From Planctomycetota bacterium (GTDB lineage Bacteria; Planctomycetota; SZUA-567; H5-PLA8): a stretch of DNA of 64,000 bases. The DNA is taken from positions 1 through 64,000 of the forward strand of contig JBBRPR010000018.1 of assembly GCA_038227875.1 (NCBI GenBank), in the 5' to 3' direction. Of this stretch, positions 1-3,000 are shown piece by piece. Every line of letters begins with the position of its first letter. The stretch's first letter is position 1. Made by a program: the position numbers.

Positions 1-3000
1 ACTGGATTGTAAACCGCGTCTGTCCTGTAGACAAAGCGGTCAGTACGAAGCGAGCCCCTTGACGAGGCCGTGAAAGGAAGGTACGTTTCGGTTTCGGCTA
101 CGGACGTTCAACCAATTTCAACAACGGATGGGACATCCGCCTGGACCGGTTGTGCCCATGCATACGCCTAGCCTACCGGTGTACTTGGCGTAACCACTGG
201 CCATAAACGCCGCGGCCTCTTCGTGCCGGGTCGTTATCAGGCGGATCTTGTCTTTGCGTTTGCGCAGCGCTTCGGTGATATGATTTACGCCGTCGCCGAT
301 GACCGTAAAGACTAGCGAAACATCCCATGCGACGAGTTTATCCACGAGCACATCGGCGGTATTCATGCCGGATTTCTCCTTAGCGGTCTTCACTTCCGGG
401 GCATTCGCGGGCGCATCGGCACCATGGGCCGGGTCCGTGAACAAATTGGCTTTCGTTTTTTCCATTAACAAGCTCCGCAGGGCCTTTCGAGCCGCCGCAA
501 ACCTATGGCCATGAATTGCCCTTGGAGCGACACTATAAATAGTGCGCACGGCACCTGTTTTTATTGAAACATCAAACGAAAACGATCCATGGACTATCGG
601 ATTTCGATGGGCCATCGAAATGCTACCCTCTCTCTCTGCCGGCTTGGAAATAACCTTGGCTTAACGGTTGCTTATGTTTGCCGGTCGGCGTCTTGCATAC
701 TCAAAAGAAAGTCATCATGAAATTGAGACAGGGAAGTTTTTACTGGCCTTTCAGGAATAGAGAATTCGATCGGCGGCTACTTCAGCGCCTGATTGAAGAT
801 CTGCTCGCCGATGTGGTCGTGATTGGCGGTGGGATCAGCGGCGGTTCTTGAAATTCTGGCGTAAGGAACTCAACTTGGTCTACATCGCAGATCTCAATAA
901 CGTCTTTCCCCGCGTGGAACAAGTCCTCAGGAAGCTCTCTGCGGTCAGCCTCGCCGGAAAGAAGACGCCAAAAGGAAAGCCGATCGCACCTCGTCCGCTC
1001 TCGGGCACGACGGTTAATCGTTACCTGGAAGCGCTCGCGGCGTTCTGTGACTGGTGTTCCAATGCAAATCGCCGCTACTTAGACGTCGATCCTCTTAAAG
1101 GGATCGAAAAATTTGAACAGCCGAGCGAATCGCCGCGACGCGCAATCACGCCGGCGGAAATCCAACTGTTGCTTGAAAAGTGCTACCCCCCTCGACGGAT
1201 TGTGTATGAGATGGCCTTGGTCAGTGGCCTCCGAGCAAATGAGTTGCGATCGTTGTGTGTGAAGCATCTGGATACCGAACGCGGCGGTATCATTCTGGAC
1301 GCGCTCTTTACTGAATCGAAAAAAGATGCCTCGTTTACGAAGTCTCGCAAGGGCGGGTTTCAGCCCTTGCCGTCTTGGATCGTAGACAAGCTGGCGGCGA
1401 TGGCGGAGGAGAAAGAACCAAACGACACGCTTCTACAGGTGCCACTCCACCCCCACCGGCCGTTCCAGCACGACCTGAAGCGGGCTGGCATTCCTAAGTG
1501 GGCGCCGGGCGGCAAGCTCGATTTCCACGCGCTGCGCACTGGCTTCACCACACTCGTGTTTGAAGCCGGCGCCAACCCGAAGGAAGCGCAGAAGCTGGCT
1601 CGGCACGCCACACCGGAGTTGACGATGCGCATCTACGCCCGGGCTCGAGATCCACGCCTGGCCGAACTGGTGAATACCGTTGGCGACGTGATCAACCCGG
1701 AACGGACTGCGGAGCAGCGTATCGCCGTCGGTGCCGAAGGCCAAGAAGGCCCTGTAGGGCCTTCGCCGAGCCAAAACGTGCACGAGCTATACAGCGGTCG
1801 CTAGCACACCTATGAAAAAAGGCAATATACCCGGGGGGATTCGAACCTCCGACCTCAGCCTTCGCAGGGCTGCGCTCTATCCAGCTGAGCTACGGGTACA
1901 AACTGAACTTCCGAAGTAGATTAGCCATACCGCCCGCGTTTTCAATCTCAAATGCGAAATCGGCCCGCTTCGCCTCAACAATCCTTCCGTCCAGCGCAAT
2001 CAAATCGTCATTACTGTCGGGCGCATCAAGGGTACGCAGGGCGGAATAGACCTTTTTGCTTCGAACTGCTATCATACGGAGCAAGCCACTTATCAGGAGG
2101 CCGGCGCGCGTGCTCGACCCGCATTCGGATTTGTCCGAGAAGAAAAGTTGGGACCTCGACTTCGCTCAGGCGCTGGTTCAGGCTACCCCCACGTTCTTCG
2201 TCGCGTTGGCTCCCGACGGGCGCGTGCGACTGATGAACCGCGCGATGCTGGAAGCACTTGGTTATACGCTCCAGGAAGTCCTCGGCGCCGACTACATTCG
2301 AATGTTCGTGCCGCCGGAAGATCACCCCCTGCTCAATTCCATCTTTGCCCGCATCACCGTCGACCGCGCGCTGACGGTGAACGAAAATCAAGTCATTTCA
2401 AAATCTGGAGAGAAGCTGCTGGTCGAATGGCATGGGCGGCCAAGCTTCAAGGCCGACGGATCACTCGATTATTTCTTCGGCGTCGGCATCAACATCACCG
2501 AGCGCAAGGCGGCCGAAATCGCACTGAAACGCAGCGAAGAACTCAGCCGACGCATTCTTGAAAACGTCTCCGGCGGCATAGTGTTGGTCTCGTCAGCCGG
2601 CGCAATCCTCAAGGCCAACTCCGAAGCGCAGCGGTTCCTGGGTCTTAACTACGTCGAATTACAGCAACTGTACGTCTCCGATTTTTCCACCAAGACCGTG
2701 CGTGAGGACGGCTCTGCTTGCCCCATCGAGGAGTATCCCGTGTCGCTGGCGCTGAAGACCGGACAACCGCAGCCGCCAGTCACGATCGGCGTTCAAAAGC
2801 CAGACGGCAGCATCAACTGGGGAATTTTTTCCGCGGTCCCGCTGGCCGATCCGGTCACGGGAGAACCCTCCGGAGTCGTGGTGACCTTCGTCGACATCAC
2901 CCAGCGCAAGCGCGAAGAGCGCGAACGCCTGGCACTGGAACGCAAGCTGCTGGAGGCGCAGAAACTCGAAAGCCTCGGCATTCTCGCCGGCGGCATCGCG

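Follow-up and report, generated by a model that had tools for sequence, protein, structure and literature searches.

The 64,000-nt stretch of planctomycete DNA analyzed here (the window) holds one tRNA gene detected by ARAGORN, a tRNA-Arg with anticodon GCG, and this gene raises the question of whether the lineage that carries it reads the CGN codons of arginine without wobble inosine and without TadA, the tRNA A34 deaminase. We consider it very probable that this lineage gave up wobble inosine and that the window gene supplies its main arginine tRNA.

The studied assembly (G000; 9.3 Mb, ~59% G+C, 88.1% complete) belongs to family H5-PLA8 (f1), which was compared with its sister family (f2) and with the rest of its class. 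The sampled order comprises 20 genomes (17 from f1, two from f2 and one from f3), and families f4-f7 contribute 42 genomes from the remainder of the class. TadA was assigned with the NCBIfam equivalog NF008113, using its curated cut-off of 150 bits over the whole protein, and tRNA genes were evaluated with Rfam model RF00005 (gathering score 29). For the phylum, 401 genomes at ≥85% completeness were sampled, counting TadA at E≤1e-30.

The window gene and the arginine tRNA set

The genome-wide survey's note had placed a tRNA-Arg(GCG) gene at 1825..1900, with a second copy in the tRNA array of contig C25, and both calls stand. The window gene lies on the minus strand, folds into a cloverleaf and matches RF00005 at 1826-1899 with 64.1 bits, spanning model positions 1-71 of 71; the assembly has one further gene for this isoacceptor, in the C25 array, with a score of 44.0 bits. 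According to the sequence, the ARAGORN drawing and the Rfam alignment, the anticodon G34-C35-G36 occupies 1863..1865 on the minus strand (c-g-c in plus-strand letters), G34 being the complement of base 1865. The 7-nt anticodon loop (1861-1867) reads C-U-G-C-G-A-A, with U33 and A37 present, and the T stem contains one A-C mismatch that is also found in G004. Arginine identity in E. coli depends on A20, C35 and G36; all three are kept in the window tRNA, A20 being part of the D loop AGCUGGAUA. Judged from its sequence, the gene at 1825-1900 encodes a sound tRNA-Arg(GCG), which ArgRS would be expected to charge.

Across the whole genome, ARAGORN returned 81 calls. Anticodon gcg was called in the window and in the C25 array, and tcg on C46 (29963-30036) and in the C25 array, each with a third call that is not tRNA-like (89 nt on C33 and 97 nt on C1, respectively). 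The remaining arginine anticodons are ccg on C5, cct on C2 and tct, the latter in the C25 array only. No tRNA-Arg(ACG) appeared among the 81 calls, and the five 'acg' calls obtained among 561 at a lowered threshold all lack tRNA-like D or T arms. ARAGORN therefore bears out the survey's view that the genome serves its CGN box with GCG, UCG (C46) and CCG (C5) tRNAs and has no credible ACG gene.

By a rough count over 3363 long ORFs of this genome, CGC accounts for 54% of arginine codons, CGU for 14% and CGA for 9.5%. G34 would read CGC through a Watson-Crick pair and CGU through G-U wobble, so that tRNA-Arg(GCG) would serve about two-thirds of arginine codons; tRNA-Arg(UCG) would read CGA and probably also CGG, and tRNA-Arg(CCG) would read CGG. 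With the A34 arginine tRNA absent, TadA would be left without an arginine substrate, and we infer that the mature arginine tRNA contains no inosine.

A different account of these absences is that the ACG tRNA and tadA reside in the unassembled 12% of the genome, the GCG tRNA being an extra copy. Some expected tRNAs are indeed missing outside the C25 array: tRNA-Arg(UCU) is not found elsewhere in the assembly, though relatives have one, and tRNA-Ile(GAU) is absent from it and seen in relatives G005, G006, G007 and G017. Given the 88% completeness of the assembly and these missing tRNAs, absence in this genome alone is weak evidence, and the case rests on its relatives.

Distribution across the class and the origin of G34

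Relatives were searched for the anticodon-loop patterns CUGCG(A/G)A (GCG) and CUACG (ACG). The GCG loop was present and the ACG loop absent in 17 of 17 f1 genomes and in both f2 genomes, and ARAGORN gave anticodon gcg at 18 of these 19 loci, the assignment in G001 relying on the pattern match alone. The ACG loop was found in at least 33 of the 43 genomes of f3-f7, and in at least 32 of the 42 genomes of f4-f7. NF008113 exceeded its cut-off in none of the 20 genomes of the order, versus 39 of 42 in f4-f7; in the studied genome its two best scores, 60.9 and 54.8 bits, belong to a 382-aa frame on C11 and a protein on C83, respectively. In the phylum sample, 365 of the 401 genomes had TadA, and none of the 11 f1 genomes, G000 included, was among them. 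These counts agree with the survey's statement that other families of the class keep both tRNA-Arg(ACG) and TadA. In f3, the combination of ACG without TadA is defined by a single unpublished genome (G019, 77% complete).

Faced with this distribution, an assembly artefact has an extremely small chance of being the explanation. The state is identical in 19 of 19 f1 and f2 genomes, including G006 and G007, which are assembled in eight and six contigs (94% and 88% complete), the same searches recover both TadA and the ACG tRNA in f4-f7, and the dead TadA relics described below fit a true loss of function. The ACG tRNA, which is the substrate of TadA, is lacking in the studied genome and in the 18 others of these two families, and the studied genome has a UCG tRNA for CGA. 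The evidence supports a system in which f1 and f2 decode CGN with GCG, UCG and CCG tRNAs, without an A34 arginine tRNA or a working TadA.

The UCG tRNA has a distribution of its own. By pattern search it was found in 13 of 17 f1 genomes (the pattern giving no match in the other four), one of two f2 genomes, the one f3 genome and two of four f5 genomes, and in none of the 38 genomes of f4, f6 and f7. That tRNA-Arg(UCG) is confined to switched lineages or their neighbours is a new observation. The order of events that we propose would begin with the addition of a UCG tRNA to the ancestral set of ACG and CCG; once the UCG tRNA was present, the one substitution that turns A34 of the ACG gene into G34 would have been nearly neutral. 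The catalytic glutamate of TadA would have been lost next, and most genera would have gone on to lose the whole gene. A one-base switch of this kind is plausible on comparison of the tRNAs. Matched over 45 nt, the GCG gene of f2 and the ACG gene of f3 have the arms GTCGGCCTGCGGAGCCGG and GTCGGTCTACGGAACCGA, respectively, and in another part of the phylum position 34 is the only difference between G084 (GCG) and G103 (ACG) in the anticodon arm and loop.

For f1 itself, the GCG gene might instead have been gained by horizontal transfer, displacing the ACG gene, a route that we regard as rather unlikely. The window tRNA is 84-97% identical to the 16 other f1 copies and 77% identical to the f2 copy, so that the 85-100% identity given in the survey's note for both families approximates f1 and does not extend to f2. 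The same tRNA shares 87-88% identity with some Dehalococcoidia GCG tRNAs and 66-81% with ACG tRNAs from within the class; the anticodon arm, GCAGCCCTGCGAAGGCTG, recurs unchanged in several Dehalococcoidia and other planctomycete records. This closeness to Dehalococcoidia leaves the in-place change as only a candidate for f1. A 74-nt tRNA, however, holds little phylogenetic signal, anticodon arms converge with the anticodon, and other GCG/ACG pairs in the order and phylum are distinguished by little more than position 34. The genomic context can likewise be read in two directions. A tyrosine integrase gene (848..1804, plus strand; an ORF matching Pfam PF00589 at 49.6 bits) abuts the tRNA gene in the studied genome, ending ~20 nt from the tRNA 3' end, but none of the 17 relatives' loci has an integrase homologue within 1.5 kb of the tRNA. 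The GCG gene itself is present in all 17 f1 genomes, and a histidine-kinase gene on its other flank is common to three of the relatives' loci. The integrase is the mark of a mobile element inserted at the tRNA in this genome only, and belongs to the context of the gene rather than to the decoding system. An A34-to-G34 change within the lineage remains our preferred reading.

TadA-derived genes and the deaminase of contig C83

The survey's claim that TadA is lost holds for the order insofar as no genome exceeds the cut-off, and has to be amended for five of the 17 f1 genomes (G006, G007, G008, G009 and G011), which keep an intact, full-length TadA-like gene with a dead site. The encoded proteins score 85-98 bits, NF008113 being their sole NCBIfam match, and thus fall below 150 bits; they also lack the combination of a catalytic H-A-E with a P-C-x-x-C zinc site. 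The HAE site reads HAT in G006, G007 and G008, HAV in G009 and RAV in G011, where the zinc site is PCVMS, and two metagenome relatives have HAL. The position of the relic Val is, we presume, also occupied by Val in eukaryotic ADAT3. Aligned to E. coli TadA (1z3a), the relic Val stands opposite the Glu of HAE; the DPKAG motif of the relics has no Lys, and an insertion follows the HAx helix. Within one genus, the gene is under purifying selection. The presence in these genomes of an intact TadA-derived gene with a replaced catalytic glutamate (Thr, Val) is a new observation.

In the tree, the relic clade attaches among TadAs at forks with <80 support. The neighbours of the relic genes encode an ABC permease, an AAA_33 kinase-like protein and LipB, and give no functional clue. 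The studied genome has no relic remnant beside its conserved ABC-permease gene (C29, ~35.6-36.5 kb), and its only weak match to the relics is the C83 protein (30-32% identity). A protein that has Thr, Val or Leu instead of the catalytic glutamate and is kept under purifying selection, across at least three genera, hints at a second role of TadA without deamination, a suggestion that we put forward tentatively as possible but doubtful. The relics may exemplify a pseudo-deaminase that recurs among bacteria and perhaps binds RNA. Weak TadA-like matches in other groups without TadA were examined as further candidates for a dead TadA, and none is dead: those in G485 and G455 carry HAE with a FECCPMCC site and are a different deaminase, the one in G491 is guanine-deaminase-like, and the one in G103 is a RibD-type stand-alone domain.

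The C83 protein (P0001) had been raised in the survey's note as a deaminase that could still act on some tRNA. If it edited an A34 tRNA, for instance the AAU tRNA on C66, inosine would be kept in the studied genome. P0001 has intact HAE and PCVMC sites, its best solved relatives are TadA enzymes (1z3a, E 1.9e-13, residues 19-166), it is absent from relatives of the studied genome, and the AAU tRNA, which the survey's note gives for this genome alone, is well formed, with A34 and an Rfam score of 66.3 bits. Against these points, P0001 reaches 54.8 of the required 150 bits and has no counterpart of the DPKAGACGS stretch of TadA; its family forms a branch of length 5.6 in the tree and is as distant from TadA as the guanine-deaminase-like proteins are. 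Its relatives at 55-68% identity, Armatimonadota among them, are labelled nucleoside deaminase, and neither the rest of the class (61 genomes) nor the rest of the phylum sample (400 genomes) yielded an orthologue. The AAU tRNA, for its part, has two A-C mismatches and no close paralogue. Editing by P0001 would, moreover, concern one genome at most and not the lineage, and we judge it very unlikely.

The protein is encoded in a 53% G+C stretch of C83, compared to a contig average of 59%. Low G+C is restricted to the first 7.5 kb of C83, which as a whole does not stand out in composition, ranking 12th among the 37 contigs of 20-50 kb, and the stretch may have arrived either by transfer or by mis-binning. 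By its similarities, tree position and distribution, P0001 is foreign to the phylum and no TadA orthologue, which is a new observation. A search for its family in five GCG-bearing genomes (Armatimonadota, Thermoflexus, Dormiibacterota, Ktedonobacterales and Fervidifonticultor), run without a positive control, returned none.

Both the relics and the C83 protein bear on annotation, since one source labels relatives of both as 'tRNA(adenine34) deaminase', a name that neither should carry. Similarly, a missing TadA should not count against a genome when completeness is estimated in these groups.

Comparison with known decoding systems

The replacement of ACG by GCG together with TadA loss is already known from several bacterial groups, and the survey's view that it had been described in bacteria only for Mollicutes is contradicted by published work and by our own scans. 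Passages of Ehrlich et al. 2021 (PMC8007984) give tRNA-Arg(GCG), and not ACG, for every sequenced member of the Thermotogae and Spirochaetes, and passages of Diwan & Agashe 2018 (PMC6063277) describe repeated loss of the inosine modification together with its target tRNA; the word 'Planctomycet' is absent from the main text of both papers, whose figures and supplements list clades. We found GCG arginine tRNAs in at least 120 records from many free-living phyla. GCG without ACG, and without TadA over the cut-off, was observed in five of five genomes examined (Thermotogaceae, Spirochaetia, Dehalococcoides, Thermoleophilia and NC10); none of 61 genomes sampled from the class to which a Dehalococcoides genome belongs had TadA over the cut-off, and the same GCG state occurs in two further families of Planctomycetota.

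Eukaryotic ADAT3/Tad3 (PDB 7nz7_B, 'probable inactive tRNA-specific adenosine deaminase-like protein 3') invites comparison with the relics, TadA-family members in which the catalytic Glu is replaced (by Val in G009 and G011). ADAT3 is a catalytically inactive subunit (PMC3239186), the partner of ADAT2. The five relic genomes, in contrast, have no active ADAT2/TadA-type partner over the cut-off, their other deaminase matches being RibD-length frames or guanine-deaminase-like proteins. Because they lack both such a partner and an A34 arginine tRNA, a heterodimeric, ADAT3-like editing role for the relics is unlikely.

The archaeal arrangement, as outlined in parts of PMC8007984 and 10.64898/2026.05.15.725136, consists of GCG, UCG and CCG tRNAs without an A34 deaminase. 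Families f1 and f2 share this anticodon set and the lack of an inosine system, but their TadA relics show that the state arose secondarily, from a bacterial ancestor with TadA. The bacteria treated in the cited passages of PMC6063277 and PMC8007984 are likewise free-living, lack TadA and the ACG tRNA, and retain non-target tRNAs; the present case differs in that the change falls within a single class, where both states, and possible intermediates, are represented.

Among the closest parallels are Mollicutes of the M. pneumoniae group, for which passages of Yokobori et al. 2013 (PMC3711424) propose gain of UCG followed by an A34-to-G34 change, a model that matches the distribution of UCG in this class. 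In both systems ACG has given way to GCG, UCG is present and, in Mollicutes as in most genera here, tadA is gone. As described in the same passages, however, the Mollicutes have reduced, AT-rich genomes that lost tRNA-Arg(CCG) first, and their tadA degenerated before being lost, whereas the planctomycete has 9.3 Mb at ~59% G+C and keeps CCG, and an intact dead-site gene persists in some genera of its family. The order adds a large-genome, GC-rich, free-living case of GCG decoding, within a class that presents three states: ACG and CCG with TadA; ACG, UCG and CCG; and GCG, UCG and CCG with TadA dead or missing. With the change lying inside one class, the order of steps proposed for Mollicutes becomes testable on a tree.

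tRNA-Arg(GCG) and its setting in the window

The only tRNA found in the window is a tRNA-Arg with anticodon GCG, called by ARAGORN on the reverse strand at 1825-1900 and matched over the whole Rfam tRNA model at 1826-1899 with 64.1 bits (the gathering score is 29). Its anticodon (1863-1865, reverse strand) lies in a loop reading CUGCGAA, and it carries A20, C35 and G36, the arginine identity elements. The T stem contains a single A-C mismatch, common to the copy of genome G004. Its single-strand fold is no better than that of shuffled sequences (z -0.8), as is usual, and uninformative, for tRNAs. 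At its 3′ end GGGTATA precedes TTG, and most relatives have GGGTACGCCA instead, a difference suggesting that an island has inserted at this tRNA; the island is incomplete because the contig begins at base 1.

Only about 20 nt separate the tRNA 3′ end from the end of a tyrosine integrase gene (848-1804, forward strand; PF00589, 49.6 bits), and none of 17 loci from relatives has an integrase beside the tRNA. A 165-aa ORF (118-615, reverse strand) stops early and by eye resembles a thiamine-diphosphate enzyme in its N-terminal part; it is probably the fragment of a gene, adjoining the integrase.

Arginine tRNAs and deaminases of the genome

ARAGORN made 81 calls on the assembly (9.34 Mb, 176 contigs, 88.1% complete), in which the window corresponds to C18:1-64000. 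Besides the window copy on contig C18, a divergent tRNA-Arg(GCG) scoring 44.0 bits in Rfam lies in a tRNA array on C25; ARAGORN places tRNA-Arg(UCG) on C46 and in this array, tRNA-Arg(CCG) on C5, tRNA-Arg(CCU) on C2 and tRNA-Arg(UCU) in the array alone. None of the 81 calls is a tRNA-Arg(ACG). We rejected five 'acg' calls among the 561 obtained at a lowered threshold, none having tRNA-like arms, and two more 'Arg' calls (89 and 97 nt) that are unlike tRNAs. Among the arginine codons of 3363 long ORFs, which stand in crudely for genes, CGC accounts for 54%, CGU for 14%, CGG for 19%, CGA for 9.5% and AGR for 4%; the shares of CGC and CGU mean that tRNA-Arg(GCG) has about two thirds of all arginine codons to read. 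The mechanism is probably ordinary wobble decoding with no inosine involved.

The C25 array (15917-21842, locus L203) comprises 30 ARAGORN tRNA calls in about 5.9 kb, on one strand throughout, with 22 above the Rfam gathering score; a CCA end is encoded in some of its tRNAs, and many are divergent. The array has a mobile or phage-type appearance and holds the genome's sole tRNA-Ile(GAU) and tRNA-Ile(UAU) calls, as well as that of tRNA-Arg(UCU). The sole credible A34 tRNA of the assembly has anticodon AAU (C66:25411-25485; locus L204, 515-586; 66.3 bits in Rfam), two A-C mismatches and an encoded CCA; it has no close paralogue, the best match being a valine tRNA at 76%. ARAGORN also reports a tRNA with anticodon CUA and encoded CCA, labelled Pyl (C67:21469-21544), which could be an amber suppressor, and two tRNA-SeC (C13:840-935 and C47:42458-42548).

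With NF008113, the NCBIfam equivalog model of TadA (cut-off 150 bits), a 382-aa frame on C11 scored 60.9 bits and a 192-aa protein on C83 scored 54.8 bits, and Pfam deaminase models added no further candidates. The C83 protein, P0001, is an intact TadA-like 'nucleoside deaminase' (C83:2591-3166) that has the motifs HAE and PCVMC; among proteins of solved structure, its best relatives are TadAs. It reaches only 55 bits, lacks the DPKAGACGS stretch and belongs to a family on a very long branch. The best 120 of its 367 relatives are 55-100% identical, some relatives being named nucleoside deaminases from Armatimonadota, and neither the class (61 other genomes) nor the phylum (400 others sampled) yielded an orthologue. 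Its stretch of C83 has 53% G+C, and the adjoining ORF is by eye manganese-catalase-like. Low score, missing DPKAGACGS stretch, long branch, named relatives, lack of an orthologue in class or phylum and G+C content set P0001 apart from TadA; we regard it as foreign, through transfer or mis-binning, and as uninformative on the lineage.

Distribution across the class and the fate of TadA

The class comprises 62 genomes in seven families, which we searched with a pattern that combines D arm, anticodon loop and T loop. All 17 genomes of family H5-PLA8 (f1) and both of its sister family (f2), including assemblies of 8 and 6 contigs, show a GCG loop and lack one with ACG; ARAGORN reads gcg at 18 of these 19 loci, that of G001 being assigned by pattern match alone. 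Identity with the window tRNA is 84-97% among the 16 remaining f1 copies and 77% for the copy in f2. ACG loops occur in at least 33 of the 43 genomes of f3-f7. None of the order's 20 genomes has a match above the NF008113 cut-off, as against 39 of 42 in f4-f7 (the others being G050, at 142.9 bits, G032 and G061). The genome-wide survey's note of a GCG tRNA with neither ACG nor TadA in this lineage is thereby borne out.

The third family of the order (f3), represented by a single unpublished genome (G019, 77% complete), has ACG (C463:8386-8430) and no TadA match. The same combination occurs in G103 (C9:47250-47294; 89% complete), where the best match is a RibD-type stand-alone domain; these cases reflect either an assembly gap or the use of unmodified A34. 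In two f5 genomes, tadA and the gene of its substrate, tRNA-Arg(ACG), share a strand and are about 46 nt apart (G023 C282:66603-67148; G024 C79:152123-152661). Both of these ACG + TadA genomes carry an extra, odd tRNA-Arg(gcg) whose acceptor stem is unusual (L042, G023 C179; L043, G024 C143), with C instead of U at position 33 in G024.

That TadA was lost, as also claimed, is correct for a protein above the cut-off, but five f1 genomes from three genera (G006, G007, G008, G009 and G011) keep an intact TadA-derived gene with an altered active site. These relics match NF008113 over its full length (85-98 bits) and no second NCBIfam model. Aligned with 17 TadAs of the class, they retain EEPVGAV, DPTAHA, EPCxMCAGA, LVYGA and a GACGS-like stretch; HAE has become HAT, HAV, or RAV with PCVMS (HAL in two metagenome relatives), the Lys of DPKAG is missing, and 13-30 residues are inserted past the HAx helix. 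The G009 relic has Val opposite the Glu of HAE in E. coli TadA (1z3a, E 1.2e-22, residues 9-147). The seven relic sequences group in a single clade (support 100/99, stem length 1.05), whose attachment among TadAs the tree does not fix; outside it, the closest matches are ordinary TadAs, 37-44% identical. Within genus g5, dN/dS values of 0.04 (G006-G008, dS 0.25), 0.28 and 0.24 argue that an apparently catalytically dead gene is conserved, at least there; between genera, values of 0.4-0.8 are unreliable, with dS near saturation. No trace of the relic appears in the genome under study, whether next to the conserved neighbouring gene or at any other place.

Occurrence in other bacteria and possible route of the switch

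A scan for the GCG arginine tRNA, with one genome per species, yielded at least 120 loci. Among the matches listed, ARAGORN reads gcg in 120 of 120, and these include Dehalococcoidia and other Chloroflexota, Thermoleophilia, Gaiellales, NC10, Armatimonadota, Thermotogaceae, Spirochaetia, Uhrbacteria, Nautiliales and Planctomycetota. Five genomes, from Dehalococcoides, Thermotogaceae, Spirochaetia, Thermoleophilia and NC10, carry GCG and lack ACG without exception; no TadA exceeds the cut-off in any of them, or in any of 61 sampled genomes from the class of the Dehalococcoides genome. TadA is found at E<=1e-30 in 365 of 401 sampled Planctomycetota; five without it outside f1 have GCG (two, f25 and f34), ACG (one, f44) or UCG and CCG alone (two).

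The survey's note held that this solution was known in bacteria from genome-reduced Mollicutes alone, the case described by Yokobori 2013 (PMC3711424). This does not stand beside the five sampled genomes and the Thermotogae and Spirochaetes, all sequenced members of which have GCG in place of ACG according to Ehrlich 2021 (PMC8007984); Diwan & Agashe 2018 (PMC6063277) describe repeated loss of inosine modification. The decoding state of this lineage is already known from other bacteria. 'Planctomycet' is absent from the main texts of these three papers and of preprint 10.64898/2026.05.15.725136, the clade lists of Diwan & Agashe being in figures and supplements, and searches for literature on TadA in Planctomycetes or inactive bacterial TadA returned nothing relevant.

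One base change would suffice for ACG to become GCG. The anticodon arms of the f2 GCG and f3 ACG tRNAs are almost alike, and in two other Planctomycetota families the anticodon arm and loop of one GCG and one ACG tRNA differ at position 34 alone (45 nt matched). For f1, a change from A34 to G34 in place is not established, because its tRNA resembles the GCG tRNAs of Dehalococcoidia (87-88% identity) more than the ACG tRNAs found within the class (66-81%), a likeness that may reflect anticodon-arm convergence or replacement by transfer.

tRNA-Arg(UCG) was found in 13 of 17 f1 genomes, one of two in f2, the single f3 genome and two of four in f5, and in none of 38 from f4, f6 and f7. The class therefore contains three states: ACG and CCG with TadA; ACG, UCG and CCG; and GCG, UCG and CCG without a working TadA. 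The worth of the case lies in these intermediates inside one class and in a conserved, seemingly catalytically dead TadA. The states agree with the order proposed for Mollicutes by Yokobori 2013 (PMC3711424), in which UCG was gained first and ACG changed to GCG later.
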